The notes under the pieces are model-generated. The model was given only the letters and a program-made list of their open reading frames with translations. It was not told where the DNA came from and did no database searches. A DNA stretch of 64,000 bases from a virus. A program made the translations under genes and the position numbers. Shown in pieces: positions 22,764-46,660 of this stretch (its first letter is position 1; each line of letters begins with the position of its first letter). The stretch spans positions 7,211 through 71,210 of the IMG/VR virus record IMGVR_UViG_3300046538_000109. One strand, given 5' to 3'.

Positions 22764-22827
22764 CATTTGCCAACTTTTTCAGCGTAGAATTACCCAATCG
22801 TCAATCGCCCTACCCCATAGGATCGCC

Positions 22828-23145
22828 ATGCACACTCTGCAAATCAGCATCCCCGAAGACCTTGATTTCTCCGCCCTGAAATTAAGCCGCCACCTTGAAA
22901 GCGGCGACATCGAATTCGACTGGGCACCCGTCGACGCCATCTGCGCCGCCTCCGGCATCGACCCGGATGTCTTCCGGCAGACCGCCGAGGACAACCTGGC
23001 CAGCTTGATCTCAACGTGGTACCACATGCACCGCGAACTGGGCGGCGCCGCCGACCCGGTGGCCGAGCAGATCACCGCCGAGATCGAGGCCGAAGCGATC
23101 GCCGGTATCGCCGGTGTTCAGGAGGCGTCGGGCCGCCTGCAATAG
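22828..23145 (+). CDS. Hypothetical protein (~105 aa)
   Basis: ORF; start assigned to internal ATG at 22828 downstream of the inverted repeat. Confidence 0.35.
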   Translation: MHTLQISIPEDLDFSALKLSRHLESGDIEFDWAPVDAICAASGIDPDVFRQTAEDNLASLISTWYHMHRELGGAADPVAEQITAEIEAEAIAGIAGVQEASGRLQ

Positions 23146-23152
23146 CGGTCCG

Positions 23153-24304
23153 ATGGACAGCAACCAGTCGCGCCCGCCAGCGCGATTCCAGCCGGCCACC
23201 GCGCTGGCCAGCCCTCCCCTACTCCCTGGCGCGCTCACGCACGCCGACACTGACGCGCGCCTGGTGCGACTATGGCTGCAACGCCCCAACCTCTCCCCGC
23301 GCACCATCCGCGCCGCCGACAAGGAGGCGCACCGTTTCCTGCTCTGGTGCGGCGCACACGGTCTGCAGCTGCGCACCGTCTACTACGAGCACCTGCTGGC
23401 CTACGCCAACTTCATCAGCCAGCCCGAACCAGCCGACCAATGGATCGCGGCGGCGAAGTACCCGCGCACCGATCAGCGCTGGCGTCCCTTCCTTGGCCCG
23501 CTGTCCGAACCGTCGCAGCGGCAAACGCTGGTGATCCTGAAAGGATTGTTCGGCTGGGCGCGCGCAGCCGAGTACCTGGCCCACAATCCGGCCAAGCTGC
23601 TGGGTAACCTGGCGCTGTCGGGCGAGGAAACCGTGTCGCGCTTCCTGCCCTCCCCAGCCATCCCGTTGCTGCTGGCGGCCGTCGAGCAGCTGCCGTGCGA
23701 TCGTCCAGGCGAAGCGATCCGCAAGGCCCGCGCCCGCTTCATCATCCTGGCCTACTACCATTCCGCCGCTAGGCTGAACGAGCTGGTGCAGGCGGACATG
23801 CGCAGCATCGCGCGCGAGCGCGACGGCCGCTGGTGGCTGCACGTTCTGGGGAAAGGAAAGAAGAAGGGCAAGGTACCGGTGACGGATCAGCTGCTGGCGG
23901 AGTATCAACGCTACCGTGAAGCGCTTGGTTTGAGTGCCCTGCCCCGGCACGATGAATCATTGCCGCTGCTACTGGCGTCACGCGGGCCACAACGCCGGGC
24001 CAGCCACTACACGATTGCCCGCGCAATCAAGCTCGTCATGAAAAGCGCCGGCGCGCTGGCCAGCGCCGATGGCAACCCCGAACTCGCGCGGCGGATTGAG
24101 CAAGCCTCCACGCACTGGTTGCGGCATTCCTCGCTCACGCACCAGCTCGACGCCGGGATGCCGCTGACCACCGTGCAGCGGAACGGCCGCCACGCGCACA
24201 TCAAAACCACGGGGCGTTACCTGCATAAAGAGGATGATGCTCGCCACAACGAAACGCAGGACGCTTGGGTGAAACTTTACACAGAGGGCGATTATTCAAA
24301 TTGA
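23153..24304 (+). CDS. Tyrosine site-specific recombinase / integrase
   Basis: C-terminal catalytic signature ...HWLRHSSLTHQ...HIKTTGRYLH (R-H-R-Y family); N-terminal SAM-like core-binding region; stop codon lies inside a palindromic repeat. Confidence 0.8.
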   Translation: MDSNQSRPPARFQPATALASPPLLPGALTHADTDARLVRLWLQRPNLSPRTIRAADKEAHRFLLWCGAHGLQLRTVYYEHLLAYANFISQPEPADQWIAAAKYPRTDQRWRPFLGPLSEPSQRQTLVILKGLFGWARAAEYLAHNPAKLLGNLALSGEETVSRFLPSPAIPLLLAAVEQLPCDRPGEAIRKARARFIILAYYHSAARLNELVQADMRSIARERDGRWWLHVLGKGKKKGKVPVTDQLLAEYQRYREALGLSALPRHDESLPLLLASRGPQRRASHYTIARAIKLVMKSAGALASADGNPELARRIEQASTHWLRHSSLTHQLDAGMPLTTVQRNGRHAHIKTTGRYLHKEDDARHNETQDAWVKLYTEGDYSN

Positions 24305-24327
24305 ATAATTCGTAAGTCATTGATTTT
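24288..24327. repeat. 40-bp direct repeat copy 1 containing 9-1-9 palindrome ATTATTCAA-a-TTGAATAAT then TCGTAAGTCATTGATTTT
   Basis: Read directly; near-identical copy at 25887-25926; overlaps recombinase stop codon (24302-24304). Confidence 0.6.
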
Positions 24328-24452
24328 TAATGGCGTGATGGCGGAATATCCGCTGACGCACTTCGTTTGTCGCCCGTCGAATTTGCTTCGCAAATCAAGC
24401 AGCGCTGTCGCGCTGTCGAAGCCGGGGCGGTTTCTTGGGGTTGCTCGTAAGA

Positions 24453-25645
24453 TCATCCATCATGAATATTCGGCATTCTGGCTATCGCAGCGAAAGAGGG
24501 CAGGATCTTTGCCTCTGGCTCAACAAATGACAAGGCCCCAGTTACCTGATGTGCAGCATACTTAACATCGCGGTTTGCGGCCGGTGGTGGCGCCAGGCTG
24601 ATGGTCGGAGGGGGAGTGGAGGCAACGACATGCTTATATTTGGCTATGGTCTGCCTGGCTAGACCAGTGGCACGTCCGATAGCTGCTTGAGTCAGTGTCT
24701 CGCCGCGCGCCTGCAATAAGCGACATGCGGCGCGGATCTTCGCTTCCGTGACAGATTGGCGCTCTTGGTGCGTGCGGGTCGCGGCGCGCTTTTGGCGCTC
24801 GGCCAGCGGCAACTCGGCGTCAAGCTGCATCACGCCGCGGTTTGCGCGACGAGAGCCGGTGTAATGCTCCCATGTCCACCTGGCGACCGATTTCACCGTC
24901 GCGCGGACTGATGACAGCGCCAGATTCGCGGCGAATCCGAGATGCAGGAACTGATTCTTGCTGTGCGCATAGGCGTCCACCATGCGTGTGAAGGAGGCGA
25001 GGGTGCCGCTGGCACGTTCGCGGCCCACAATCGAGTAGGCGTAGTGACGAAGGTACTCGAACAGCGTACAGTGGCGGGAATGCGCAACCTCATCCAGCTG
25101 GACGCCTTTGCTCCAAGGGCTTGTCGTTACCAGATCCACGTAGTCGGCCAGATCGCCCAGTTCATAGACGGTGCTGTGCAGTTCGTGCGTCAGCCACCAT
25201 GGATGGCCCGGGGTCTTGGCCACCGGCCCCGAATGATATTCCGGGTCGGCTGACAGCTTGGCGGCGAATGCCTCATAGACCGCCTTCATATAGGCGATCG
25301 GCCCGCCACGAGCTGCTGCCGTCGTGCACACTGGCGTGATGGCATAGTAAAGATGGCTGTGCCCGTTCTTTCGGTTGCGCACGATCAGATTCGGCGCCGG
25401 CAGACCGGCGTCCTCCCAGCGCCAAGCGTCCGCGTGGTCGAGGTCAAAAATCAACCAGCTCACAAAGCCCGGGCGGTTTATCTGCATATACGGGTAACGT
25501 ATCGCGTACTCACGTGGTCTAATTCGCGTCGCCGTCTTATCGTCGCTGCAGCGAGGCAGGTAAGGCGCTTCCCGCAGAATGCGGTTAAGCGCCGTTCCCG
25601 CCTGGAAGAAGCGAACCTCTTCCGATTTTGGAACGTGCATAGCCA
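24453..25645 (-). CDS. Putative plasmid/phage replication initiator (Replicase/primase-like N-terminus, C-terminal HTH)
   Basis: N-terminal region (LIVRNRKNGHSHLYYAIT...) recalled as resembling the plasmid 'Replicase' primase-type Rep family; C-terminal HTH LTQAAIGRATGLARQTIAKY; sits between partition genes and recombinase, flanked by palindromic direct repeats. Start set to the Met of MAMHVPK. Confidence 0.5.
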
Positions 25646-25683
25646 TCCTTGCCCCTGGAGGGGGTAAAGTTATTGACAGCCAT

Positions 25684-25741
25684 ACCAAGGGGGACTAAGA
25701 TGAAGTTTCTCAGGCCTCGGGGTCTTTGGTCCCCCTTGGTA
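25684..25741. promoter_or_regulatory. 13-bp perfect inverted repeat TACCAAGGGGGAC ... GTCCCCCTTGGTA (32-bp spacer) in the rep promoter region
   Basis: Read directly; 40-95 bp upstream of the rep start. Confidence 0.4.
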
Positions 25742-25757
25742 CAGCATCTAATTGTTT

Positions 25758-25790
25758 AAAAACGCCTCGATCGCCAAATCGGGGCGTTTT
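25758..25790 (-). terminator. Intrinsic terminator for the parAB operon (minus strand)
   Basis: Stem AAAACGCC/GGCGTTTT with 15-nt loop; on the minus-strand transcript followed by UUUUUAAA. Confidence 0.45.
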
Positions 25791-25886
25791 GCTTTCTAGG
25801 GTGGGTTTCAGTGGCCCATATTCATCCTCGTAGAAATGACAAAAACCCAGCCGAAGCCGGGTTTTCAATTAATAGTTGTTCCTCAC

Positions 25887-25926
25887 GCGATTATTCAATT
25901 TGAATAATTCGTAAGTCATTGATTTT
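25887..25926. repeat. 40-bp direct repeat copy 2 containing 9-1-9 palindrome ATTATTCAA-t-TTGAATAAT; 8 bp downstream of parB stop (candidate parS)
   Basis: Read directly; differs from copy 1 only at the central base of the palindrome. Confidence 0.6.
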
Positions 25927-25933
25927 ATTGAAA

Positions 25934-26869
25934 TCAACTATTGCTCTCCTGCTGAATTAACGTCCGCAGGAACGATTCTATTTTGTCGCGATGCGCTTCG
26001 AGATCCAAATTGCGGTCTGCCAAGCGAATAGTAATATCGCGCTTCTTCACTATTGTAACGTATGCAGTATTGCCGGAAGAGTTTGAAATGATGCGATTGG
26101 GCACATCTTTTTTTTCGTCGTTCAGCCTGGAAATCTGCTGAGCCACCCAGGCCTTCAAGCCATTTTGATCGGCGCCTTCTTTGAATCGCTTGACGCCCTC
26201 CACGATTGTCGCCGTATGTTCTGGGTGGGCCTTCCACAGCGCTTGGATATTGGCGGCGGCGGACACGCCAAACAGGCCGGGATCATCATCCAGCAGCGCA
26301 AGAATAGGCGAGGGCAGTTCCAGCATCGACAGGCACTTGGACACGAAGCCCTGAGACTTGCCGACTTGTACTGCCAGCTCGGACTGGGTATTCGCCAGCT
26401 TCTCATCCAGTCGGCGGCGGAAGCTGCAGCCGTACTCGTAGTCGTGCGGCGGAGTGCCGGTGTTATCGATCAGGACAGCGGCAGCGGCTTCCTTGTTGGA
26501 CAGGGCGACAATCAGCACGCGCGCCTCTTCCCATCCAATGCTCAGGGCCGAGTACTTGCGGGTATGCCCTTTGACAACTTCTGCGCGCCCTGGTGTGACA
26601 ATCCGCACCTCGATGGGGTCAACCTGGCGCGTGGCCAGCATGGACTGGCCAATGGCATCTACGCGCAGTGGATCAATCTTGAGGCGCGTCTGGTAGGGGC
26701 TATCATCCAGTAGGTCCAGGCGCATCATCATTTCGGTGCCCGGGACCGGGGCTGTTGGGCCGCTCGGCGCATCCTGTGGCGCGAATGCCGCAGATGGAGT
26801 GATGCCGGTGGCCGGCACGACACGCCCGGATTGGATTAATCCGGATACCTTGAATCCTGGCTTGCTCAC
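25934..26869 (-). CDS. parB: ParB-family partition protein
   Basis: 311 aa; ParB/Srx-like N-terminal region and central HTH (ELAVQVGKSQGFVSKCLSML); translationally coupled to the upstream parA (ATGA-type overlap 26866-26869). Confidence 0.75.
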   Translation of the reverse strand: MSKPGFKVSGLIQSGRVVPATGITPSAAFAPQDAPSGPTAPVPGTEMMMRLDLLDDSPYQTRLKIDPLRVDAIGQSMLATRQVDPIEVRIVTPGRAEVVKGHTRKYSALSIGWEEARVLIVALSNKEAAAAVLIDNTGTPPHDYEYGCSFRRRLDEKLANTQSELAVQVGKSQGFVSKCLSMLELPSPILALLDDDPGLFGVSAAANIQALWKAHPEHTATIVEGVKRFKEGADQNGLKAWVAQQISRLNDEKKDVPNRIISNSSGNTAYVTIVKKRDITIRLADRNLDLEAHRDKIESFLRTLIQQESNS

Positions 26870-28089
26870 GCGGCTTCCTCCAGCTGGGCGGCCGGGCCGG
26901 CGCCGGCCAGGCGAATACTGTAGAGGCGAGTGAGGGACTTGGTCAGGTCGATAATGTCGCGTGCACCGCCGCTATTGGGCTCCTTTTCCAACACCGGACC
27001 ATTGGTATGGATGCTATCCGGGTCGGTTTCGCGCAAGAAGCCGACGAAGTCGCGCACGATGGTGTCATTAATCTTGTCCGGATACTTCGCCAGTAACTTG
27101 GAGAGGGAGAAATTGTGCGGTTTTTTCGTCTGGTTGTACTGATTCACGACGATATGCACGTCCAAGTTGATGCCCTGGCGGTTGAAGGCGGCATTGATCT
27201 CCTGCACGTTCGACGCCAGCACGTCCAGAGCTGCGATTGCTTGGCCCTCCGGCGATACCACGGTCAGTAGCGTTTTGCTGGCCACCATGAACGTGGTGGA
27301 GAGTAGGGAGGCGCCCGGAGCCGAGTCGATGACGATCACATCATATTTGCTAAAGAATTCCTGTTCCTGCTCCAGCAGGCGCTGGAATGCGAATTCACGG
27401 TTCATGATTCCCATCAACCAAGTGTCATCCACCATCGTGATATCGCTGGGGATCAGGTCGAGCATGCCCCCAGGGTAGACCGAGCGCACCGCTTGCTCAG
27501 GATTGGCAGGCTCGTTGCGTGCTGCGCGCTGCATCAACTTGGACACGTGGGTGATCTCTTCTTCCAGCCAGTTGATGCCGAACAGGGAGGTCAACGATGC
27601 CTGTGGGTCGCCGTCAATCAGCAGCACTTTGTAGCCGGACAGGGCAAGGCAACTGGCAACATTGCCCGTGATGGTCGTCTTTCCGACGCCGCCCTTGGCC
27701 ATGCGCGTATCAATGATCGGGGGAAGGTTGCGCGGTCGCGTGGCATCTTGAGGGATGCCCAGTAGATCCATGCGGATATGCCGAATTTCTTGCGCCGAAT
27801 ACAGCTTGTGTGAGTTATCGGTCGAGTCGCGGTAGCGAGCGCGGAACGTCTTGGGCGTGCCCGTGAAGCCGGTCAACTCCATGGCGAGTTTCGCCTTCAC
27901 CCCATCAAAAGATCGCATAATTTGCCTTGGTTCAAAAATAATGTTGCCTATCATATCTTTCTCAAGGGTTCTTTTCAATACGGTTTTTGAAAAATAAAGG
28001 GGAATCTGCAAAAAAAGGGCGTTGCTACGATTGCTTGGTCGCCATGGCGTGTACGTCGATGGCTTCTCGGAGGTCGGCATGCCAGTCAT
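26866..28089 (-). CDS. parA: ParA partition ATPase, type Ia (long N-terminal extension)
   Basis: Deviant Walker A MAKGGVGKTT preceded by ~120-aa N-terminal extension as in P1 ParA/F SopA; 407 aa. Confidence 0.85.
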   Translation of the reverse strand: MTGMPTSEKPSTYTPWRPSNRSNALFLQIPLYFSKTVLKRTLEKDMIGNIIFEPRQIMRSFDGVKAKLAMELTGFTGTPKTFRARYRDSTDNSHKLYSAQEIRHIRMDLLGIPQDATRPRNLPPIIDTRMAKGGVGKTTITGNVASCLALSGYKVLLIDGDPQASLTSLFGINWLEEEITHVSKLMQRAARNEPANPEQAVRSVYPGGMLDLIPSDITMVDDTWLMGIMNREFAFQRLLEQEQEFFSKYDVIVIDSAPGASLLSTTFMVASKTLLTVVSPEGQAIAALDVLASNVQEINAAFNRQGINLDVHIVVNQYNQTKKPHNFSLSKLLAKYPDKINDTIVRDFVGFLRETDPDSIHTNGPVLEKEPNSGGARDIIDLTKSLTRLYSIRLAGAGPAAQLEEAA

Positions 28090-35881: not shown

Positions 35882-35946
35882 CGAAAATCTAAGTTTTCCG
35901 GAAAGCCCACTTAGACTGCCTCGCGTTGACCAAGGAGGCGGGGCAG

Positions 35947-36378
35947 ATGAAAACGAAGGATCCGATAACGCAATACTGCTGGGACTGGGTGCGATGGTGC
36001 GAAACGCGCCATTTCTACATCCGCTCTGTCGGGCAGGGCACGCTCGGCGCCCTGCAGCAGGGCAAGGGCGGCGGCCGCGAGCCCAACGCGCGCAACGATC
36101 CCGACATGCAGTATTTCAACATGGCCGTGCACACCCTGCGCGACCTACCCCAGTATCGCCGCGAGTGGCTGGCGTTCGAGTATTTTTATCTCAAGCCCGA
36201 TCAGGTCGTGAAGCGCACGGCCGAGCAGCTGGGCGTCGGCCTGCGCACCTACTACGACATGGTGCGCCGGTTCGGCCAGCGCGCCTACCGGCTTTACCCG
36301 AGCATCAAGAAAGCCCACGAGGCAATGTCCGCCGCGAGCAACAAGCACGCCGCGCTGGCGGCCGCAGACATCGACTGA
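35947..36378 (+). CDS. Possible late-gene regulator (Q-antiterminator-like by position)
   Basis: SD AAGGAGG 8 nt before ATG 35947; W/Y-rich small protein at the position lambdoid phages place Q; homology not verified. Confidence 0.3.
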   Translation: MKTKDPITQYCWDWVRWCETRHFYIRSVGQGTLGALQQGKGGGREPNARNDPDMQYFNMAVHTLRDLPQYRREWLAFEYFYLKPDQVVKRTAEQLGVGLRTYYDMVRRFGQRAYRLYPSIKKAHEAMSAASNKHAALAAADID

Positions 36379-36421: not shown

Positions 36422-37486
36422 ATGACCTGTACCGTTTTCCTCGTCGGCAGCAAGTATCACTACCGATTCCGCCTGGCGCCGCTGCCCCGGATCCAGCGCA
36501 GCACGCGCGACACTGACAAGCGCCGCGCCCAGCGGATCGCCAATCTGGCCTACGCCGCCGCGCTGGTGCGGGTCAACGGCGGCCACATAATGCCCACGCT
36601 CGATGAGCTGATCGACCAGTGGTTCGAGATCCGTGGCCCGGTGGCCAGCGCCTCGCACCGGCGCGGCGTCGACACCTTCAAGCGCAAGCACCTGTACGGC
36701 ATGGGCGCGCTGCCGATCGACCAGCTGCACACCAAGGTGGTGGAGATCGCCCGCAACAAGCATCTGGCCACGCGCAAGCCGGCGTCGGGCAATCACTGGC
36801 TGCGGATACTCAATCTGCTGGTCAACTGGGCCGTCAAGGGCAAGATCCTCACCGAACGGCCGTGGGATGTGGACATGCTGCCGGAGCAGAAGTCGCCGCG
36901 CCAAATCCTTCCCATCAGCCTGACCGACGCATGGTTTGACGCGATCGACGCGGCCAGTCGGCGCCGCCCGTCGGTGGCGATCGCCGTGCGCCTGATGTAC
37001 GGACTGGGCTTGCGCGAGTCGGAAGCGGCCACCGCGCGCTGGGAATGGATCGACTGGGAGCGCCGCACGTACACGCCCGGCATCACCAAGGGCAAGGAAG
37101 CGGTGCCGATCCGGATGCCTGGCTGGCTGGCCGGCTACCTGCACGAGCGCCGCCAGAAGGATGGACCGATCACGCCCGGGCGCAACGGCCAGCTGCCCGA
37201 GGGTTACGCGCGCCACGCCATGCGGCAAGCCAACCTGGCGACGTCGCTGACCGGCATCACGCCGCACCGACTGCGCGGCACCTGCGCGACGCTGCTGTCT
37301 GAGGAAGGAACGCCCGTCCAGACCATCCAGGCCATCATGCGCCACAAGGACGCCACGACCACCATGCGCTATCTGGAAATCAACATGGACACCGCCGGCG
37401 CAGCGCAGGACCGCATCGAAAGCAAGGTCCGCTTCGGTGGGCGAAAACTGGGCGCAGACCTGCCAACGGAGGCTACGGGCAAATGA
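36422..37486 (+). CDS. Second tyrosine integrase (phage integrase family)
   Basis: N-terminal arm-binding-like GSKYHYRFR; C-terminal HRLRGTCATLL...HKDATTTMRYL (R...HxxR...Y). Confidence 0.8.
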   Translation: MTCTVFLVGSKYHYRFRLAPLPRIQRSTRDTDKRRAQRIANLAYAAALVRVNGGHIMPTLDELIDQWFEIRGPVASASHRRGVDTFKRKHLYGMGALPIDQLHTKVVEIARNKHLATRKPASGNHWLRILNLLVNWAVKGKILTERPWDVDMLPEQKSPRQILPISLTDAWFDAIDAASRRRPSVAIAVRLMYGLGLRESEAATARWEWIDWERRTYTPGITKGKEAVPIRMPGWLAGYLHERRQKDGPITPGRNGQLPEGYARHAMRQANLATSLTGITPHRLRGTCATLLSEEGTPVQTIQAIMRHKDATTTMRYLEINMDTAGAAQDRIESKVRFGGRKLGADLPTEATGK

Positions 37487-37790
37487 AGACGCGGACAAAT
37501 CATAATCATCGGTGTCAATTCAGCCGGCCGCCTTGCCACAACGGCAACTGCCCGGTTGCGCCGCCGGTTGCAGAGGTTGCGCGCGACCCGAAATGCAACC
37601 GCGCGGGCACCGTCCCGCAAATTGTTCCACGGCCAGCAAGTGCGGGGAAATGCCGCACGCCGATTCATGGAAATCACAAGCGTTATCAATCACTTAGCCG
37701 ATCAGAACCAGACGCGGCCGAGCAGCTGCGCGCGGCGTCCGGACATCGGCAAATCGGCCAAAAATCGGGCCTGTCGGAAGACCTCAGAAA

Positions 37791-37848
37791 GTTACACAAA
37801 ATCCGGTTACACAAAAAGTTACACAACGCCCATTTGTGCAACCTGCAC
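37791..37848. promoter_or_regulatory. Three direct repeats GTTACACAA (37791, 37806, 37819) followed by 6-3-6 palindrome TGTGCA-acc-TGCACA
   Basis: Read directly; between integrase 2 and the SPFH gene. Confidence 0.4.
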
Positions 37849-37905
37849 ACATTTTCAGCACCGGGAAACCGCGCCCCGATCCGCGCGGACTAGAAGGAAG
37901 AACAA

Positions 37906-38847
37906 ATGCAATTTGCACAACGCTACACCAAGCAATTCCCTGAAACGCTCCGCCGCCCGGCCTACACCGAGCTGAACACTTTCGCCATCGCCCGCGATGT
38001 GATCGCCGCTCTGCTGGTTGCGATACTGCTGCTGACCCTCTGGCCATTCCGCACGGTGCCGACGGGCTCGCGCGGCGTCGTCACCCAGTTCGGCGCGATC
38101 AAGGGCATCCAGAACGAAGGACTGGTAATCCTGGCACCGTGGGAGAAGCTGGCCCTGTTCAGCGTGCGCGCCGAGACGGCCAGCATTGAGAGCGCGGACG
38201 GAAGCACGTCCGACACCCAGCCGGTCAAGGTCAGCATGACGGTGCGCTACAGCATCAAGGTTGCGAAGGTGGCCGAGGTCTACGAGAAATACAGCCACGA
38301 CGGGGATTTGTCCTCCTACGTGCAAACCGCCACCCAGGAAGCATTTAAGGCGGTGACGGCCCGCTACACCGCGCCGGACCTGATTTCCAAGCGCGCGCAG
38401 GTTTCCGCCGATATCGCGACCGCACTCTCGGGCAAGCTGGCGATGTACGGCGCCCAGGTAATCAACATCGATATGCGCAACTTCGCATTCTCGGGCGACT
38501 ACATGAATGCCATCAGCGCGAAGGTGACGCAGGAGCAGCTGCGCTTGGGCGCGGAGAACAAGCTGCACACCGTCGAGGCGGAACAGAAACAAAAGGTCGC
38601 CATCGCCGAGGCGGAAGCGAACGCGCTCAAGGCCAAGGCCGACGGCGAGGCGTATGCAAATCTGAAAGTGGCAACCGCCCAGGCCGACGCGCTGCGTATC
38701 CAGAACGCCGCACTGGCGCAGAACAAGGACGTGCTCGAGCTGCGCCGCATTGAAGTGGAGAAGGTCAAGGCCGAGCGCTGGAATGGCGCGCTGCCGCAGA
38801 ACATGTATGCGGGAGCCCCGATCCCATTCCTCAACATGGGCAAGTAA
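37906..38847 (+). CDS. SPFH/band-7 (prohibitin/HflC-like) membrane protein
   Basis: N-terminal TM helix then band-7 core (VPTGSRGVVTQFGAIKG...APWEKLALFSVRAE...) and C-terminal coiled coil (KQKVAIAEAEANALKAKADGEA). Confidence 0.8.
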   Translation: MQFAQRYTKQFPETLRRPAYTELNTFAIARDVIAALLVAILLLTLWPFRTVPTGSRGVVTQFGAIKGIQNEGLVILAPWEKLALFSVRAETASIESADGSTSDTQPVKVSMTVRYSIKVAKVAEVYEKYSHDGDLSSYVQTATQEAFKAVTARYTAPDLISKRAQVSADIATALSGKLAMYGAQVINIDMRNFAFSGDYMNAISAKVTQEQLRLGAENKLHTVEAEQKQKVAIAEAEANALKAKADGEAYANLKVATAQADALRIQNAALAQNKDVLELRRIEVEKVKAERWNGALPQNMYAGAPIPFLNMGK

Positions 38848-38922
38848 CAGCAGTGCATTGCGGGGCACCCTCACCGGAAGCCCCTCACCGCGCGCCTCCT
38901 AACCACCACCAAGGAAACGACA

Positions 38923-39483
38923 ATGCCCCACTCAACATGTCTTGCGGCACTGCGCGCCGAACGTGACAAAACGACAGGTCCTATTCGCCGCGCCTACAAC
39001 GCAGTGTGCGATCGCCTCGAGGTGCTAAACAGCGTGATTGCGCAGGAAGCCGCCGGCCCAGCCGCGCGGACCATTGAAACAATGGGAATGCAGTCGACGC
39101 ACATCGCCAAGCCCGAACTCGTCACCGCGATCGCGATCTCCAACTGCGTCATGACCGCAACCGGATATCGGCTCACCCTGGCAGATAACACCGACTTGGA
39201 GATCCCAGCCGCGACCGTCGAGATCTTCGGCGGGCCTCAGTTTGGCGACTACTGGGTAACGCGCGATGGTTTCAGCTACATCATGAAAAAGACCGTGTTC
39301 GAGCACCGCTACATGAAGCTGGCCAGTCTGCCGACCGATCCGCGCCCGCTTTGCTACCCAATGCCGCCGGTGGAAGTCTGCGCCGCAGCGGAACTCGTCG
39401 GCCGCTACTTCGCAACCCAGAACGTCGGCAGCTGGGAGCTCGGACCGTGCAAGACCCGCTTCCCGCGCGGAGCACTCGCATGA
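38923..39483 (+). CDS. Hypothetical protein (186 aa)
   Basis: ORF; SD-like ACCAAGGAAACG upstream. Confidence 0.4.
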   Translation: MPHSTCLAALRAERDKTTGPIRRAYNAVCDRLEVLNSVIAQEAAGPAARTIETMGMQSTHIAKPELVTAIAISNCVMTATGYRLTLADNTDLEIPAATVEIFGGPQFGDYWVTRDGFSYIMKKTVFEHRYMKLASLPTDPRPLCYPMPPVEVCAAAELVGRYFATQNVGSWELGPCKTRFPRGALA

Positions 39484-40562
39484 GCGCCACAATCGATCAC
39501 GGCGAGCCAGAGTGGATCGTCAATGACCTCGGCGAGCTGGGCGTGAAACTGCGCGGGCGCTTCTTCTTCCTCTACAAGGGCGACAGCATCGAATATCACG
39601 ACGGCGTGCACGACGACGGTACGCCAATCCTGTGGCGCCCAGTCGGCAAGCGCGAGTTCGGCGAGACGTGCTGGCCGGTAGTTTGGCAATTGGCCGGGAG
39701 CCGCGAGGCTCGCTACACCCAGGAGCTGATCTACACCCCCGGGCTGAGCTTCGGCGCGCCCGGAGATTGCGACTGGCGGCCGTTGGGCAAGGCCGTACCC
39801 GCTGCGCCAGATCCGGTCGAGCCGCCAGCGCACATCGCCGCCCCGAACATCAAGGACATGAGCCTGCTGATCGCGCGGCTGGCGTATTCGCTCAAGAAGG
39901 CCGCACCCGAGCACGAGTTGCCCGCCAAGGCGACGGCTTACCTGAAAAAGCACGATCTGATCGGCAGTCCGTTGCGCGGCGCGGAAGAACCCAGCACCGT
40001 CCCGGTCAATGCTTCGCTGCGCGCATGGGTGGAGCGCCGCTACCTGGGCGACGAAATGGTGCATGAAACTGTGACGTTGCAGCCGATGCCAGAGCACGAG
40101 CGCACGCATCTGGAGCAGTTTTATCGGCTGGAGATCATCGAATTGGCCCCGGTCGCGCCGCTGGCGACCCTCAGCTACATGGGGGAGAGCGGCGAGTACC
40201 AAGAAATTGGGGTGGCGAATGGCGCCGGCACGATGCGCGGCAATCTGGTCCATGTGTATCGGGACGCCAAGACGGGCATCCTCTACTACCGCACGCCGAT
40301 GGAATTCGCCGCGCGCATGGTGCGCACCTCGCCGGCGCCTGATGCTACACAGATGCGCTGCACTTGCCCAAGCCATGCCGCTCCCACCTTGCCGAAGGTG
40401 AAGGGCCACGTCTTGGCTGCGGTCGTCAACAACCTCCGCGATATCGCCATCCAGTTCCATGCGGCGGGCCAGCTGCGCGAGCGCCTTCGAGCAGCGTTAG
40501 GGCCGCTCCTATCTGGCACAGAACCCGATCCGCGCGACCTACATGAAGGGAAAACAACATGA
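39480..40562 (+). CDS. Hypothetical protein (360 aa)
   Basis: ATGA overlap with upstream gene; no motif recognised. Confidence 0.45.
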   Translation: MSATIDHGEPEWIVNDLGELGVKLRGRFFFLYKGDSIEYHDGVHDDGTPILWRPVGKREFGETCWPVVWQLAGSREARYTQELIYTPGLSFGAPGDCDWRPLGKAVPAAPDPVEPPAHIAAPNIKDMSLLIARLAYSLKKAAPEHELPAKATAYLKKHDLIGSPLRGAEEPSTVPVNASLRAWVERRYLGDEMVHETVTLQPMPEHERTHLEQFYRLEIIELAPVAPLATLSYMGESGEYQEIGVANGAGTMRGNLVHVYRDAKTGILYYRTPMEFAARMVRTSPAPDATQMRCTCPSHAAPTLPKVKGHVLAAVVNNLRDIAIQFHAAGQLRERLRAALGPLLSGTEPDPRDLHEGKTT

Positions 40563-40801
40563 GAGATATGTGCATCATGGCATGCGTGTTCTGCCACAAC
40601 CTCGAATTCCAGCGATGGGCGGACTCGCTCGGCGATCGCCGCGTCGAAGATGACGAGGACGCCAAGGCGTTCATCCTCGATACCTGCAGCGTCACAACCC
40701 GCAACGCCCTGGACAGTGACGCGGCCGCCGCCGAACGATTCCACGAGCAGATCCGCAAGCCGTTTCTGGCATGGAAGGAGGCGCAGCATGCCCAGCGATG
40801 A
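40559..40801 (+). CDS. Hypothetical protein (80 aa)
   Basis: ATGA overlap with upstream gene. Confidence 0.35.
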   Translation: MRDMCIMACVFCHNLEFQRWADSLGDRRVEDDEDAKAFILDTCSVTTRNALDSDAAAAERFHEQIRKPFLAWKEAQHAQR

Positions 40802-41528
40802 ACGTCACCCAGGCGGGCACATCTCACCCCGATACGCGATCTACCCGGGCAGCGTGGGCAGCCGGTCCGATGGCGACGTACACCACATCACCGCCGGCCA
40901 GCTGCGCGCGCTCTACCGCGTGCGGCAGGACGAGTGCATCGTGGTCTACCCGCACGAATCGTTCGACCCGTCGAAGCGCGAAAAGCTCGAACGGGCCAGC
41001 AACCTGATCCCGCTCACGCCGCGCTACGACGGCAATTACACCTTACCGACGGCAGGCGCCGGATTCAAACGACTCCACCACAGTCCACAAGCGGTATTCA
41101 AGGGCGCAACCCTGTTATCACTATCGCCGCGCGGCACCTGGTTGAAAAAGCGAAGTGAAGAGCGTTACCTTGCGCGCGATGACGCTTATGGCTTGCGCGC
41201 CCCACCTATCGCCGAAATTGGAGTAGTGGAGCAGTTTCGATTCATTGTTTCGCCGACCACCCCCAAACCACCAACGAGAAAAACAAATATGGCAATCACC
41301 GTATTCAAGTCGAGCAGCATCGGCAAGTCGCAGATCGAGCCCCACGTCGTCAACACGCACAGCCTACTCACGCGCGCCGGCTTTCACCGCTACGTGATCC
41401 AGCGTCTCAGCGGCTACGCCAGCGACGGCGAAGCCTGGACCGGCACGCATTTCCTTCGATTCGTACCCTGCAGGCGCAATCACGGCGCAGCTGCCGTGCA
41501 CGCGGCGTTCACCAGTTCGGCAACCTGA
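40788..41528 (+). CDS. Hypothetical protein (246 aa)
   Basis: Strong SD GGAAGGAGG before ATG 40788; overlaps upstream stop by 14 nt. Confidence 0.45.
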   Translation: MPSDERHPGGHISPRYAIYPGSVGSRSDGDVHHITAGQLRALYRVRQDECIVVYPHESFDPSKREKLERASNLIPLTPRYDGNYTLPTAGAGFKRLHHSPQAVFKGATLLSLSPRGTWLKKRSEERYLARDDAYGLRAPPIAEIGVVEQFRFIVSPTTPKPPTRKTNMAITVFKSSSIGKSQIEPHVVNTHSLLTRAGFHRYVIQRLSGYASDGEAWTGTHFLRFVPCRRNHGAAAVHAAFTSSAT

Positions 41529-41548
41529 CCACCACCCAACCACAAGGA

Positions 41549-42322
41549 ATGACACCTATGCGCCTCACCTACCTTATCCTGTCCGTTGTCTGGGTCGCGT
41601 TCTACGCGCTCGTACTGAGCCCCTTCCTCGCGACGAGCCCGGCGAGCGCCGCCGGCGAGATCGACCAGGCTCTCGTCATCTTCGGTTGCTGCTGGACCGC
41701 GCTCGGCGTGTGCCTTGCCCTGCATGCGCACCCGGTAAATCAGCCCCGCACCGAAGCGGAAGCGCCGGCCGAGGCACCCGCGCACGAAGCAGCAGAGCCA
41801 CCCTTGCAGCCCCCGAGCCGCGCGGACGCGCAAAAGCACAACGCACGCATGCACGCCATGTTGGATCGCCTCACCGCCAGTTCGCCCGACATGGGCATGG
41901 ACATGCGCGACGCGTTCCTCTACGGCCTGTCCGGGCAGTCAATCGCGTTCGACCCAGAAAGCGGCGAACCAGTCTGGAAGATTATCCCCATGCCGGAATT
42001 ATTCAATCACCTTGGATCGATGCACGCCGCGGAGCGCACGGCCGCAATCGCAGCGAAGGTGCCACCCACCAGTAGCGCAGTCGATCCGTCGCGCCCTGTT
42101 GTTATCGGCGTCGACCTGGCGAAGCCGGGCGCCGAGCGGACCGTAATCCTTCAAGCCAGTCGGATCGGGCGCGCGACCATCCTCAAGGCCCGCCAGAATG
42201 GGATAACAGAGGCGGCCAAGCGCGAGGCGGCAGCGGGCCACCAGCACGCGGCCAAGGCAGCGGCGAAGCGCGCGAAGCGGGAACAGCGCAACGCGCACCA
42301 GGTTGCGATGGGAGCGGCATAG
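41549..42322 (+). CDS. Hypothetical membrane protein (two N-terminal TM helices)
   Basis: LTYLILSVVWVAFYALVLSPFL / ALVIFGCCWTALGVCLALH hydrophobic segments. Confidence 0.45.
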   Translation: MTPMRLTYLILSVVWVAFYALVLSPFLATSPASAAGEIDQALVIFGCCWTALGVCLALHAHPVNQPRTEAEAPAEAPAHEAAEPPLQPPSRADAQKHNARMHAMLDRLTASSPDMGMDMRDAFLYGLSGQSIAFDPESGEPVWKIIPMPELFNHLGSMHAAERTAAIAAKVPPTSSAVDPSRPVVIGVDLAKPGAERTVILQASRIGRATILKARQNGITEAAKREAAAGHQHAAKAAAKRAKREQRNAHQVAMGAA

Positions 42323-43242
42323 TGGACGGCCACGGCATAAGCGCAGCGGCCGGACGCTGGGGCAAGATCACCGCTGCGGACACCATCACGCCGGATATCG
42401 TCATCCATCCCGGGCCGAACGAGACACGATTCACCACCAAGGGCATGACGTACCGGGGCCAGCTGGTCGAGGACGCCGGCGCCGCGCATGCGATCCTGCT
42501 GGCCGTGCTCAATGGGCACCCGGTACCGCCGCCAGCAGCAGCGAACGAGGGGCAGGAGGCAAGGGAGATAGCGCGCCTCACCAAGCTGGCGGCCCAGAAC
42601 AACGCCGACGCCGAAATGTACGCGCGCGCGTGGCAGCGCGAACTGGCCGGGTTCCTGCGTCCAAAGGGCCACCACATCGATATGCTGGTAGTGTCGACGC
42701 GCGATCTCGCAGAGCGCTGCCGCACCGCAGAGAGTCGGGTCAAGGAATTGACTGCAGCAAGCGCGGACTGCGGCGCACCGATCGCCGAATCTGGCTCCCT
42801 TGCGGACAAGTTCGACCGCGCCCGTTTCGATGCGATGAACCTCACCGCAGCCCACGGAACCGCATTGCCGCCGCTGGCATTCGTCATCGACCAACTGGAG
42901 GCGGCCGACGCGCCCGATACCCGTCTCGACTGCCTGATCGCGATCGTGGTCGGATGCAACCAGGCGCCGGTCCCGGCCTACACGGCCAGCTTTGATGAAG
43001 CGCTCAAGCTGATCGAGCCGGGCCGCGACTATGAGCTGACCAGCTACGGCAGCGGCAGCGATGGCGCCACCTACACATGCGCCGCAATGAAGTGGTGGCC
43101 ACGCCCGGACGATAAGAAAGGCTGGCGCAGCGAAAGCGGGAACAAGCTGTCGCCGGCACTTGCGCTGTGCATCGCGGCGCTAAAGGTGAAACTGGCCCGG
43201 GCGGAAGAGGGCGGCGGCGCCGTTAAGCGGAGCGCGGCCTGA
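42322..43242 (+). CDS. Hypothetical protein (306 aa)
   Basis: GTG start overlapping upstream TAG (taGTG). Confidence 0.4.
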   Translation: MDGHGISAAAGRWGKITAADTITPDIVIHPGPNETRFTTKGMTYRGQLVEDAGAAHAILLAVLNGHPVPPPAAANEGQEAREIARLTKLAAQNNADAEMYARAWQRELAGFLRPKGHHIDMLVVSTRDLAERCRTAESRVKELTAASADCGAPIAESGSLADKFDRARFDAMNLTAAHGTALPPLAFVIDQLEAADAPDTRLDCLIAIVVGCNQAPVPAYTASFDEALKLIEPGRDYELTSYGSGSDGATYTCAAMKWWPRPDDKKGWRSESGNKLSPALALCIAALKVKLARAEEGGGAVKRSAA

Positions 43243-43393
43243 TAACACGGCGATACCGACCACAGCACGCAATTATGTGTGCACATGGCAATTATATGCG
43301 CATATAATTCTCTGTCGTCGCGCACCCGGCGCGGCTTTAACCAGAGGACTACCATGACAGATCCCACCATCCCGACGTCTCGGCTGCAACCGA

Positions 43394-43636
43394 ATGACAG
43401 TTCCACAGAGCCAGGCACCTCTGACCATGGCCAGTAACGCCAACAAGACCACCAAGCCAGCACCGGAACCCGCGCCAGTCGGCGCACCGCGCCAGCTTGA
43501 GGGCGGCCGTGCCGTCAATGTCTACCTCGATGCCGCCAGCATCACCAAGGCAGAGCGACTGGGCGACGGCGTCATCAGCAAAGGGATCCGGATCGCCCTG
43601 CAGGCGGCCAAAATAACAACGAAAGGCAAGCAATGA
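43394..43636 (+). CDS. Small hypothetical protein, possible ribbon-helix-helix-type DNA binder
   Basis: AVNVYLDAASITKAERLGDGVISKGIRIAL resembles RHH/antitoxin-like beta-strand-helix pattern; weak. Confidence 0.3.
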   Translation: MTVPQSQAPLTMASNANKTTKPAPEPAPVGAPRQLEGGRAVNVYLDAASITKAERLGDGVISKGIRIALQAAKITTKGKQ

Positions 43637-44337
43637 GCACACCACACGAGGCGTTACTCGCAGAAATCGACACCATGCAGGCACAGTGCGCGCAACTGGG
43701 CGCCCTGGTAGAGCGCCAAGAGGCCGAACTGGCCGAAGCGCACCGCGCCAACGACAACATGCAGCAATGCCTGCAAGAGCAATCTGAGTTGATTGGTGCG
43801 CAGGCGCGAGATTTGCGCGCCACCCCGCAGGCACAGCCCACGCTGACGGATGCGCAGATCGAGCAGCACGTACGCGCCATCTACGGCACGGCGGCGACGG
43901 CGCAGGAATTTGCCCTTGCTCGTGCTCTTTCTGGCGCGCCATCACAGTGCGCAGCGCCGAGTGAGCGGGCGCAGATCAAGCGCGTTGATTTAGAGGGCGG
44001 ATTCTGGATCGAGTTCGAGCGCAAGACCAGCGGAGCGAGTGGATGGCTACTGCGTGATAAGACAGGAAAGCTGTTGAGCGCTCTAACCTTGCATGAGGTT
44101 GATCTGGTTGACGGCGCATTGCGCGCATCCCTCGCACCAGCACCGCCAGTTGCAACGCCGGGTGAGCGGGAGCCCGACACCGACTTGGGCGCGGCCACCG
44201 ACGGCATGGAAATCCTTGACGACCTGATCGAGAGCATCAGGAAGCACGGCAACTACAGCGCGGAGGCTACGCTGACTTTCCTGGGGCAGTTGCGGCAATG
44301 CCTGGTCGCCGCCCCAGCACCGGAAGCACAGCGATGA
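43633..44337 (+). CDS. Hypothetical protein (234 aa, N-terminal coiled coil)
   Basis: ATGA overlap with upstream. Confidence 0.45.
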   Translation: MSTPHEALLAEIDTMQAQCAQLGALVERQEAELAEAHRANDNMQQCLQEQSELIGAQARDLRATPQAQPTLTDAQIEQHVRAIYGTAATAQEFALARALSGAPSQCAAPSERAQIKRVDLEGGFWIEFERKTSGASGWLLRDKTGKLLSALTLHEVDLVDGALRASLAPAPPVATPGEREPDTDLGAATDGMEILDDLIESIRKHGNYSAEATLTFLGQLRQCLVAAPAPEAQR

Positions 44338-44495
44338 GTGCCACGCCTACAGTGGAATGGATCACCGAGAAAATCCTGTCGTACACGCGCCCGGAAACAC
44401 CACGCGACCACGAGGCCGCGCAACGCTGCGCGCGCGTCATCGCCATTGCATTTGAAAAGGCTTCGGCCAACCAGCAACAGAAAGGACAACCATGA
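44334..44495 (+). CDS. Small hypothetical protein (53 aa)
   Basis: ATGA overlaps on both sides. Confidence 0.3.
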   Translation: MSATPTVEWITEKILSYTRPETPRDHEAAQRCARVIAIAFEKASANQQQKGQP

Positions 44496-45760
44496 GTACG
44501 AATGTCAAGAAGTGGGATGCGCTGCGCGATGCAGCCATGGCATGCGAAGGCTGGTCGTGGCCTGACCGCATGCGCGATGAGAATGGAACGCATCATTTTG
44601 GCCAGCGCCGGGAAGGTGAGTTCTACCAAATCGGAACCATCGACGCATGGACCTACACAAGCGATTACGCGGACGATATCCGCGTCCTGAAATTCATCCG
44701 CGCCGCTCAGCCAGAGGCCGTACTTTCCCTGTTCTCGGAAATCGACCGGCTCCGCGCAGCCCTCCAGGCGCAACAGGGCACAATCGGTCAAGCTGTCGCC
44801 TACTGCTACGAAGTGCGTCAGCCGTTCACCGATCCTTTCGAGTGGGCTGAATTCTTAGACCGCGATAAGCCATCCGAGAGCCGCGACGTGCGCAACGTCC
44901 GCGCCCTTGGCTATATAGATAGTCCTAGTGCTGCGGACGCAGGCAATCAGCTGGAAGACGCCGCCCTGGTGGCGATCAGGGAAACGGCCCCACCGCGTGA
45001 CCGACTGGGACCGCCGACGAGCAACGACAAGATGAGGGCGCAGATTGGCGAACGCATCGCGGAAAAAATCCGCGCACTGAAACCTGGTGCTACGAACGCA
45101 GGCGCTCAACCTGTTGAGCAATCCCCATACGAAGCGATCACGCTTGCCAACCTGCGCGCGGGCAAGCTGTCGGCGGCCAGGGTATACGTCGGCTACTGCG
45201 AGGTAAGCGAAGAACTGAAGGCCGCCAACGGCGCAATCAAGCGCTACCAGGCCCAGGCCGCGCCAGCACCTACAGGAGATCTGGAGTGGCGACGCTTGGC
45301 CTTGCAGTTCGACGGACACCGTATGCAAGCCATTGGGCATCTGAAATGCATGCTGAAAGATCCACAGGCTCATAAAGATGTGGCTGAAAAGTTTCTGTCT
45401 GCTGGCCCGATCAGTGGTGAAGAAGTGCTGGCAGAGCGCATTAAAGCTCTTGCGCCAGCACCGGCCACGCTGAGTGATGAGCAGATCATGCGGATTATTG
45501 GCGACGTTAGGCAGCGCAATGCGGGCACATGGCCTGGTGATGTCGTTGTCGCCAGATCCCTGCTGGCCGCTGCCGGTAACGGCCAAGGGCAGGATGGCCG
45601 GATTCTTGGCCTGCTGCGAGAAGCTCGGGCCGCGCTGGAAATGTGGAAGGACGTAGCGCCCGCTGTAAGCCTTTGCGCTGATATCGATGCCGCTCTGGAG
45701 GCGAATGAACAAGCCAACATGCGGCCTGCGCGAGTGTGCGGGAAAATCCGCACGATTTAG
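44492..45760 (+). CDS. Hypothetical protein (422 aa)
   Basis: Long ORF with good composition; no motif recognised. Confidence 0.5.
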   Translation: MSTNVKKWDALRDAAMACEGWSWPDRMRDENGTHHFGQRREGEFYQIGTIDAWTYTSDYADDIRVLKFIRAAQPEAVLSLFSEIDRLRAALQAQQGTIGQAVAYCYEVRQPFTDPFEWAEFLDRDKPSESRDVRNVRALGYIDSPSAADAGNQLEDAALVAIRETAPPRDRLGPPTSNDKMRAQIGERIAEKIRALKPGATNAGAQPVEQSPYEAITLANLRAGKLSAARVYVGYCEVSEELKAANGAIKRYQAQAAPAPTGDLEWRRLALQFDGHRMQAIGHLKCMLKDPQAHKDVAEKFLSAGPISGEEVLAERIKALAPAPATLSDEQIMRIIGDVRQRNAGTWPGDVVVARSLLAAAGNGQGQDGRILGLLREARAALEMWKDVAPAVSLCADIDAALEANEQANMRPARVCGKIRTI

Positions 45761-45908
45761 TTATGGCAAAACCCGCACAAAAGCCCGTAAAATTCGCCTC
45801 AATTCGATAGTCTGAAAAACTGTCTCTTGCGTAAAGACCCGCCATCGTGGGCCTTTCAAGGGTATCGAATGTGCGGCGCCACCGTCCAGATAGGGCGGGG
45901 CGCACCGA

Positions 45909-45984
45909 TGTCATGTAGCTCAGTTGGTAGAGCGCCGGACTGTTAATCCGGTGGTCGCTGGTTCGATCCCAGCCTTGACAGCCA
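45909..45984 (+). tRNA. tRNA-Asn (anticodon GTT), 76 nt with encoded CCA
   Basis: Cloverleaf folded by hand: acceptor TGTCATG/CTTGACA (one T:T mismatch at 6:67), D-arm GCTC-AGTTGGTA-GAGC, anticodon arm CCGGA-CTGTTAA-TCCGG, T-arm GCTGG-TTCGATC-CCAGC, discriminator G, CCA. Confidence 0.8.
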
Positions 45985-46004
45985 TAATTTACGAGCACTT
46001 CGAG

Positions 46005-46040
46005 AAAGCCCGGACGACGAAAAATCGCCCGGGCTTTTTT
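46005..46040 (+). terminator. Intrinsic terminator downstream of the tRNA
   Basis: GCCCGG-(15 nt)-CCGGGC followed by TTTTTT. Confidence 0.6.
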
Positions 46041-46096
46041 CATGGGCCGGCCGAGTAGACGCCGCCCACAACACCGAATTCAACGCGGAAGCGAGC

Positions 46097-46357
46097 ATGA
46101 AAGCCAGAATCACCATCAAGCCCTCGTCCCTCCCGATGGGGTCGCCAATCGGCATCATCATCCTGTTCGGCCTGCTGCTGGATCGCCTTGCCGCGCCTAG
46201 CTGGGTATGGGGCGTGGCGGGCATATTCGCTGTCCTTCTGGTGATCGAGTTCTTCCGTCAGCGCGCGTGGGGCGTCGAGCACGACGTTCCCGGCTTCGGG
46301 GATGCGAGCCCGGCGTACGCCACACCTGATCCGGACTTTCCACCGCCGCCGCTTTAA
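46097..46357 (+). CDS. Small hypothetical membrane protein (86 aa)
   Basis: Hydrophobic segments IGIIILFGLLL and VWGVAGIFAVLLVI. Confidence 0.35.
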   Translation: MKARITIKPSSLPMGSPIGIIILFGLLLDRLAAPSWVWGVAGIFAVLLVIEFFRQRAWGVEHDVPGFGDASPAYATPDPDFPPPPL

Positions 46358-46660
46358 ATCAAAGGCTTACGAGCCGTGGTAAATCGCGCGGGGCAAACCC
46401 CCAGCGGCATTTACCACCTACCGGCCCCGCCGCAGCGATGCGTTCGGGGCCTTCTTTTTGGGGGCGCCGTGAAAACCACCCGTCAAAGCAGGCCGATGCC
46501 GGAATGCCAGCAGGAACACCGCCAGTTGACGATCCATGACGCGCGCAACCCGTCGCTGCCGTGGCTTTCCGCCGGCGATGGCCCCGACGACTACGAGGAC
46601 ATGCAATACGCGGCCAGCTGGGTGCACTCCCGCGACAAATACAAGGAAGCCTAGCAACCC

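Follow-up and report, generated by a model that had tools for sequence, protein, structure and literature searches.

A probable accessory-gene hotspot of an Oxalobacteraceae phage-plasmid, lying between a tyrosine recombinase with its putative site and a conserved late-leader element

The region considered here lies between 36.4 and 46.0 kb of a 64,000-nucleotide stretch of viral DNA (positions 7,211 to 71,210 of the IMG/VR record IMGVR_UViG_3300046538_000109); this whole stretch is called the window, and all coordinates are those of the window unless a relative is named. The region holds a gene for a tyrosine recombinase (int2), a gene for an SPFH membrane protein and ten open reading frames (ORFs), and it is followed by a tRNA gene, a terminator and the packaging genes of the phage. 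It was compared with about 25 related phage contigs, which are designated as loci with L numbers. The genes and other features at the locus are as follows (TM, transmembrane; HTH, helix-turn-helix).

35926..36378, plus strand: g150, final gene of the conserved early set, weakly matching an HTH; anchors the hotspot on the left
36422-37486, plus strand: int2, a tyrosine site-specific recombinase (PF00589 at 1.5e-18, 67.6 bits against a cut-off of 27.1; phrog_1 at 1.7e-42)
37487..37862, plus strand: non-coding, putative recombination-site region; the architecture of the first 420 bp or so beyond int2 is conserved
37553-37600: site cluster 1, the looser one, with direct copies of GGTTGCR and inverted GCAACC, 240 bp upstream of cluster 2
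37791-37842: site cluster 2, GTTACACAA three times at spacings of 15 and 12, then inverted TTGTGCAAC after a 7-bp spacer
37906-38847, plus strand: stand-alone SPFH (prohibitin/HflK-like) membrane protein (Band_7 at 2.8e-28; phrog_200 at 2.3e-48)
38923..43242, plus strand: six translationally coupled ORFs (38923-39483, 39480-40562, 40559-40801, 40788-41528, 41549-42322 and 42322-43242)
41549-42322, plus strand: the fifth of these, a protein with two TM-like segments (two-TM protein)
42322-43242, plus strand: the sixth, g306, paired with the two-TM protein
43243..43426, plus strand: intergenic region of 184 nt with a promoter-like site and a palindrome
43280-43308, plus strand: promoter-like site TGCACA-17-TATAAT, overlapping the palindrome
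43290-43309: perfect 20-bp palindrome AATTATATGCGCATATAATT, overlapping the TATAAT and the only one in the 64 kb
43394..45760, plus strand: strain-specific four-gene cassette
43394 or 43427 to 43636, plus strand: small basic protein
43633-44337, plus strand: acidic protein of 234 aa (g234)
44334-44495, plus strand: ORF of 53 aa
44492-45760, plus strand: helical multidomain protein of 422 aa (g422)
45735..45870, plus strand: conserved non-coding element, a probable late promoter; right border of the hotspot
45909-45984, plus strand: tRNA-Asn(GTT) (ARAGORN; 71.7 bits in Rfam)
about 46003-46040, plus strand: intrinsic terminator, a GC-rich hairpin followed by U6 (RNA fold of 45985-46100 at -38.2 kcal/mol, z = -2.5)
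46097-46357 and 46376-46654: two small ORFs between the terminator and terS

Based on the comparison with the relatives, it is likely that this region is an accessory-gene hotspot of a phage-plasmid of Oxalobacteraceae, roughly 71 kb in size, and that its contents are juxtaposed modules rather than a single system. Homology to L091, L143, L144 and L145 stops at 37845-37862, is patchy thereafter, and is continuous again from 45735-45747. Due to this sharp stop and resumption, the variable region (37.85-45.73 kb) has two sharp borders. In L007, g150 is followed by the conserved element, a terminator, one small ORF and terS, and int2, the SPFH gene and cargo of any kind are lacking; in L149, a single minus-strand gene lies between g150 and terS. 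The cargo differs in L091, L143, L144, L145, L080 and L002, and even close relatives whose int2 is 81-91% identical have different genes in the hotspot. Thus, a block that is present in some collinear relatives is absent from others (viz. L007 and L149), and the suggestion of the first-pass annotation that moron-type variable cargo is carried here is borne out by this comparison.

The genes found at this position in the relatives include a SIR2 protein (PDC-S25), PDC-S20 and other PDC candidates, C5 and N6 methylases, UmuDC, SRAP, NinX and a KAP NTPase, and further Tad2-like, Hcp, PAAR and TsiV proteins and a ParE-like toxin gene, the last recognised by eye from its translation. To judge from this gene content, the locus is a real cargo hotspot, which at times holds conflict genes. 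Two sets of these genes can be given with their places. In L143 (14716-15234 and 18298-18789) and L144 (11608-12153 and 15651-18013) there are Tad2-like (anti-Thoeris family), type VI-related Hcp, PAAR, VRR_NUC and TsiV genes. In L080 (Massilia frigida), the SIR2_2 protein encoded at 3572-6196 corresponds to the PADLOC candidate PDC-S25 (7.7e-81), and the hotspot of this locus starts, in the region 2345-2800, with the minus-strand gene whose translation resembles a ParE/RelE-like toxin.

The right border is formed by the conserved non-coding element (45735-45870), which is 70-93% identical in 11 relatives and often more conserved than the genes flanking it (alignment A3). It contains an inverted repeat (GTGCGGG-N4-TCCGCAC), a third copy of the half-site (CCCGCAC), the invariant stretch CCGTAAAATTCGCCTCAATTCGATAGTCTGAAAAACTG and a short leader hairpin. 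The three half-site copies change jointly between phages, the invariant stretch includes a -10-like GATAGT, and the hairpin beyond it has compensatory variation in its stem, as read from the alignment. The counterpart of this element in L007 is found directly after g150. The element is thus probably a regulator-dependent late promoter and leader with the binding sites of the regulator, for which g150 is the candidate. The left border gene g150 has homologues only in this phage lineage, mostly on contigs of 70-80 kb; its sole match in Pfam is HTH_23 at 0.018, and it always lies directly upstream of int2, except in L007 and L149, where it precedes the late-promoter element and terS. From this position, it is probably a regulator of the late genes.

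The organisation which would best account for these observations is as follows. The hotspot would be bounded on one side by g150, the probable late regulator and final conserved early gene, and on the other by the late promoter and leader before terS, and cargo would turn over between two fixed cis-elements, with the tRNA-Asn gene and the terminator placed outside, in the late leader. Four modules would be juxtaposed in it, viz. int2 with its site, the solitary SPFH gene, the six early ORFs and the strain-specific four-gene cassette. The six early ORFs would probably be transcribed as the far end of the early operon, and the cassette from its own promoter-like site, overlapped by a palindromic operator. 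The site of int2 may serve for integration, for multimer resolution or for cyclisation of the episome. In this scheme, the pairing of proteins with motifs, the pattern of transcription and the function of every protein are inferred.

The element that carries the hotspot is assigned to the phage-plasmids by its gene content, as genes for plasmid replication and partition (Replicase with PriCT_1, ParB, ParA and KfrA_N, together with a cI-like HTH repressor) and a set of virion genes are found on one replicon. The source contig is 71,210 bp long, and most of the relatives are on stand-alone contigs of 70-80 kb. Virion genes start at 46.7 kb and include terS, terL and homologues of portal and capsid genes, the packaging genes being SU10-like; an Rz-like lysis gene is present at about 60.5 kb. 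The genes from terS onwards are collinear in all relatives with a 65-85% identical terL, whereas the region upstream is not. The nearest relatives are from Janthinobacterium, Massilia and other Oxalobacteraceae. There is no close cultured phage, terL being at most 41% identical to that of any of them, and a megablast search of the block against 50,697 phage records gave zero matches. The other features of the window that bear on the nature of this element are listed below.

12-17540, plus strand: ORF of more than 5,800 aa for a polyvalent protein, extending past the window start
17592-21217, minus strand: gene cluster after the polyvalent gene, coding for DUF4262, a protein with an H-NS C-terminal domain and a SprT-like metallopeptidase
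21374-28089: plasmid maintenance module (KfrA_N, int1, Replicase/PriCT_1, ParB and ParA), in which the GC fraction falls to 0.55-0.59
23114-24304: int1, the other tyrosine recombinase, adjoining the KfrA/Replicase/ParAB module
24453-25688, minus strand: Replicase with PriCT_1 (family search)
26866-28089: ParA, which is not an integrase

The polyvalent protein has InPase, FtsK_gamma, C5 and N6 methylase, SNF2, LPD37 and ART-PolyVal domains, and giant proteins of this kind are mentioned in a published description of Bcep22-type phages. One relative, L149 (an ENA scaffold of 176 kb), is apparently integrated in a long contig, and its integrase is of the Arm-DNA-bind_3 type. In this locus, DUF1376/DnaC-like replication genes are found within the 10 kb to the left of g150, where L145 has ParA/ParB genes; this points to an exchange of the lifestyle module within the lineage.

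The first of the modules is int2 with its site. The extra integrase reported by the first-pass annotation is indeed a second recombinase beside int1. Its catalytic R, HxxR, H and Y segments (GLRESE, HRLRGT, RHKD and MRY) align with those of the XerC-like 4a8e, and it has the C-terminal catalytic domain by which tyrosine recombinases are recognised. Homologues with 50-91% identity are found in L143, L144, L145, L091, L080, L002, L101 and L112, always just after g150, and in these same eight loci g118, g150 and int2 recur as a trio. As judged from this recurrence, int2 with its site is a conserved module of the lineage and not cargo. The three direct repeats noticed earlier after int2 are exact copies of GTTACACAA at 37791, 37806 and 37818, the only ones within the 64 kb, and they are joined by the inverted copy TTGTGCAAC at 37834-37842. 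When six relatives are aligned, the sole invariant block consists of three direct GGTTRCA copies (spacing 15 and 12) with an inverted TGYAACC 19-20 bp further on; the spacers between the copies vary in sequence, and the repeat spacing is fixed. This cluster of three direct copies and one inverted copy is exclusive to loci encoding int2. With a spacer of 7 bp between them, the third direct copy and the inverted one make up a pair of the geometry usual for a tyrosine-recombinase core, and the window contains only two such core-like pairs, both in 37487..37862, against 0.27 expected. Based on these observations, we infer that 37487..37862 is the recombination site of int2, which would bind GGTTRCA and recombine at the inverted pair. 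All of the repeats lie to the left of the core-like pair, and a conserved arm to its right was not found. Due to this one-sided placement, the site resembles a resolution-type or attI-type site more than a two-armed attP.

If the site were a true attP, then int2 and its site would make up an int-attP module and the cargo would be the equivalent of the b region of lambda, derived for example from aberrant excision from a chromosome. The conservation of int2 with intact catalytic motifs, the two repeat clusters about 240 bp apart, which are placed like P and P' arms, and the start of the cargo only 3-20 bp from the core-like pair all accord with such an origin. However, every isolate or metagenome contig seen has an unbroken run from int2 through the site into the phage genes downstream, and because the site is uninterrupted in all of them, the phage is not integrated at it. 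Further, the element carries Replicase and ParAB, the core-like pair is without a conserved right arm, and the integrated relative L149 employs an integrase of a different type. A search of IMG/VR for an attB and for further copies of the core pair gave only chance matches to unrelated sequences and the Janthinobacterium relative. An int-attP module is possible, but we regard it as rather doubtful.

To a similar extent, we regard as possible without favouring it that int2 and its site form a multimer-resolution or cyclisation system of the plasmid prophage, comparable with Cre-loxP of P1, TnpI-IRS of Tn4430 or Xer-cer. This would be in accordance with the element being a phage-plasmid, with the intact site in the stand-alone contigs of 70-80 kb, and with the accessory repeats on one side of a core-like inverted pair, which is the layout of a resolution site. 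However, int1, located beside the KfrA/Replicase/ParAB module, could perform this task instead, int2 should be repressed in the plasmid state if it is at the end of the early operon, and L007 has no int2 in the 10 kb that were examined. One relative, L148 (Janthinobacterium sp. CG23_2, FAOS01000002.1), has the module of int2 plus site twice, at 1420-3730 and 9935-11881; the copies are about 8 kb apart in direct orientation, and IS66 and rve transposase genes lie between and beside them.

The SPFH gene, which follows the site, meets the description of a stand-alone gene lacking an NfeD partner that was given to it at first. Its product scores 99.6 bits against PF01145 (cut-off 23.6) and has an N-terminal TM-like segment at residues 23-53, as in other SPFH/Band 7 proteins, and among solved chains it is closest to prohibitin 1/2 (3e-15) and HflK. 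However, it falls far below the equivalog cut-offs for HflK and HflC (TIGR01933, 43.1 bits against 159.4; TIGR01932, 27.6 against 134.4), no second SPFH gene is found nearby that could make up an hflK/hflC pair, and none of its neighbours matches NfeD, so that an SPFH-NfeD operon is not present. Homologues with 51-88% identity occur in 49 viral contigs, across which no recurrent neighbour was seen. Among the relatives, the gene is found in L091, L101, L112 and L143, and the equivalent stretch in L144 and L145 lacks it. In L091 and L143 it stands apart from the other ORFs or in a different order with respect to them. By this distribution, the SPFH gene is a solitary and widely exchanged gene. 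By analogy with its family, the protein should form a membrane-anchored ring and may modulate FtsH or membrane integrity. In common with the HflK/HflC-FtsH and prohibitin-m-AAA cages, it has one N-terminal TM segment, an SPFH domain and a C-terminal coiled-coil part; unlike them, it is encoded by one gene that has neither an HflC-like nor an NfeD partner, and a link to FtsH is hypothetical. In Burkholderia phage CSP3, orf75 is an SPFH/HflC gene that has been called a moron (PMC10269572). Like the gene of the window, orf75 stands alone in a phage that has no further hfl genes, codes for an SPFH/prohibitin domain and is annotated as accessory cargo, and CSP3 resembles the window in having a giant polyvalent protein, a Bcep22-like trait. 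The lineage of the window, with its terL distant from all cultured phages, is however a different one.

The ten plus-strand ORFs between 38923 and 45760 are separated by -4, -4, -14, +20, -1, +184, -4, -4 and -4 nt, and the same ten genes are called in an independent Logan assembly, in agreement with the ten overlapping same-strand genes first reported. Likewise, the earlier statement that no motif could be assigned in them stands, as searches of Pfam, NCBIfam and PHROGs, PDB sequence searches and Foldseek gave no functional assignment; the PDB sequence searches, made with seven proteins, found nothing beyond the matches of SPFH and int2. The six early ORFs have single-domain matches only in PHROGs, all to families of unknown function. 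In L143, L144, L145 and L091, parts of them are found as ORFs of their own whose order is roughly kept, and from this piecemeal recurrence the six ORFs are mosaics of small phage domains that have been shuffled. The protein encoded at 41549-42322 has the two TM segments noted before, and this two-TM protein followed by a g306-like protein constitutes a conserved pair in four relatives. IMG/VR scans made with g306 and with the two-TM protein yielded no relatives, and g360 had a match through one domain only. The AlphaFold2 (AF2) model of g306 has a predicted local distance difference test score (pLDDT) of 54.8 and is too poor for a structure search. A NinX domain at the C-terminus of g306 was considered and rejected, as hhalign gave a probability of 0.5% (alignment A5 against an L143 protein annotated as NinX by Pfam) and there was no Pfam match. 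A role of the two-TM protein as a holin was likewise set aside, the lysis cassette being probably at about 60.5 kb, where the Rz-like gene is located.

Unlike the earlier ORFs of the block, the genes of the four-gene cassette have no match (0/4) in L143-L146. In other loci there are local matches only, to the small basic protein (L002, L006, L008 and L064) and to one domain of g234 (L002). Over their full length, g422 (among 5.8e9 proteins) and g234 (among 1.8e9) match their own copy only, and the remaining matches span stretches of about 40-170 aa that are scattered over the early regions of unrelated phages. In its AF2 model (pLDDT 69.8), g422 consists of helices throughout, and a Foldseek search of PDB with this model found nothing below E = 2. 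The small basic protein (43394-43636) had been described as resembling ribbon-helix-helix (RHH) proteins; however, no tool supports this assignment, there being no Pfam match at E <= 0.1, no PHROG and no PDB sequence match at E <= 5, and the resemblance consists of a beta-strand/helix sequence pattern alone, which is common to the homologues in L002, L006, L008 and L064. The 184-nt gap that precedes the cassette, with a promoter-like site overlapping the unique palindrome, suggests promoter and operator functions for 43243..43426. Within the block, a promoter-like site is found only for the cassette (43.29-45.76 kb), at the end of which there is a hairpin (45735-45754). Because of this gap, the cassette is built like an autonomous, regulated unit, and it is the sole part of the block built like a classical moron.

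Several points weigh against the hotspot of juxtaposed modules as set out above. The status as a phage-plasmid is read from the genes and from the 70-80 kb contigs of the relatives, and a circular episome is presumed. The binding of GGTTRCA by int2 is proposed solely from their co-occurrence. The promoter scan returned four sites where 2.8 would be expected, an excess that is not by itself significant, and the assignments of an early operon and of a promoter of the cassette's own are guesses. Further, the tight coupling of the ORFs could mean that they are functionally linked, considering that the pair of two-TM protein and g306 is conserved in four relatives. Lastly, an absence of PADLOC and Pfam matches does not exclude an undescribed defence function, and the PADLOC search covered ten proteins only.

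The first-pass annotation had taken the SPFH gene and the ten coupled genes as a candidate for one undescribed superinfection-exclusion or anti-phage moron system, which now appears unlikely. In support of it, the genes are located in a cargo hotspot where defence candidates are present in relatives, they are tightly coupled, they include two membrane proteins (SPFH and the two-TM protein), and no assigned function contradicts it. However, when int2, SPFH and eight of the ten ORFs (all except 43394-43636 and 44298-44495) were searched against PADLOC-DB v2 at E <= 0.01, 0 families were matched, whereas the equivalent regions of the relatives do have matches; the proposed defence function of the window's genes is thus without support in the proteins scanned. 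Further, a single coupled system is not seen in the comparisons: SPFH stands alone beside unrelated genes in the 49 contigs and apart from the other ORFs, or in another order, in L091 and L143, the six early ORFs recur piecemeal as separate domains in relatives in which the last four genes do not recur, int2 belongs to the lineage module, and the run of ten is split by the 184-bp gap with its promoter-like site.

It is still less likely that int2 and its one-sided site constitute a platform for cargo exchange, at which foreign DNA would be captured or swapped at the inverted pair (37818-37842). Such a platform would account for the loss of homology between relatives only a few bases from the pair, and it would be a functional analogue of an integron attI site without attC cassettes. 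One-sided sites are known in the IRS of Tn4430 TnpI (DR1-DR2-IR1-IR2), in FRT (two direct repeats and one inverted) and in attI1 (DR2-DR1-L-R). The int2 site is similar to these in having direct accessory copies and then an inverted pair around a 7-bp spacer, beside the recombinase gene, and in that variable DNA begins just past the pair. However, it has no sequence relation to them and has a second cluster 240 bp upstream. An integron platform was rejected, as int2 scores far below the integron-integrase models (TIGR02249, 42.8 bits against a cut-off of 265; PRK15417, 30.6 against 435); the ORFs overlap by 1-14 nt, which leaves no room for attC, and recurrent intergenic inverted repeats were not found. 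A satellite or an element like a phage-inducible chromosomal island was also rejected, as the block has no replication or packaging domains, and no direct repeats flank the block, both site clusters being on the same side of int2. Finally, that the block consists of conserved, essential early or replication genes, a case which the first-pass annotation had itself raised, can practically be discarded, since in spite of its tight packing and its location directly after the early and replication genes on the same strand, L007 and L149 are without it, so that it is not conserved in all relatives, relatives with about 85% identical terL hold other genes there, and no replication domain was detected in it.

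The hotspot of juxtaposed modules is best compared with the accessory regions of lambdoid phages, viz. the nin region, the b region next to attP, and the Q-pR' region of Stx phages with its tRNAs and cargo. In both cases there are variable, dispensable small genes on the same strand near the late regulator, with tRNAs and a terminator, before the late genes, and their content differs between close relatives. However, the cargo described here lies between the regulator gene and its presumed promoter and not downstream of the promoter, a tyrosine recombinase with its site is found at the left border, and the element is a presumed phage-plasmid with a polyvalent protein. The fixed borders, the exchangeable cargo and the conflict genes in relatives are also features of the defence and counter-defence hotspots of P2/P4-like elements and of phage-plasmids, from which the window differs in that its cargo matches no known defence or anti-defence family. 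The carriage of defence genes by phage-plasmids is mentioned in the literature. The finding is thus largely an ordinary one, an accessory-gene hotspot of a temperate phage or phage-plasmid rather than one new defence system, and for the window's own genes there is no evidence yet of a new system. It illustrates in detail how a little-studied environmental lineage of phage-plasmids with giant polyvalent proteins arranges its cargo. The two precisely mapped cis-element borders can serve as an anchor for mining cargo in related contigs, which have already yielded defence, counter-defence and type VI secretion genes, and the stand-alone phage SPFH gene is seen to be widespread. Further work would be best spent on three parts, viz. 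the int2 site, the probable late-promoter element and the four-gene cassette with its promoter-like site; the first two are concrete hypotheses open to bench testing.

The tRNA gene and the strong terminator, at which the block was first said to end before the packaging genes, are both present, and an Rfam scan found nothing besides the tRNA. However, as the leader region is conserved in relatives, they do not mark the end of an island but are parts of the late leader, and two small ORFs still precede terS. A comparable terminator follows the conserved element in L007. The tRNA-Asn gene was also considered as an attachment site of an island and was rejected, since relatives have a variable tRNA slot at the same place and their phage genes are collinear across it. 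This slot contains 0-3 tRNAs (Asn, Gly, Tyr, Phe, Ile, His or Gln); across L002, L003/L101, L004/L112, L010, L011 and L014 it is either empty or filled with Gln alone or with a set such as Ile-His-Gly, Phe-Asn-Gly, Tyr-Asn-Gly or Gln-Asn. The independent assembly L140 (Logan SRR26077549_45169), which is of this same phage, is broken off some 190 bp past g422, close to where the tRNA-Asn gene starts; a near-identical tRNA elsewhere in the sample might be the cause.

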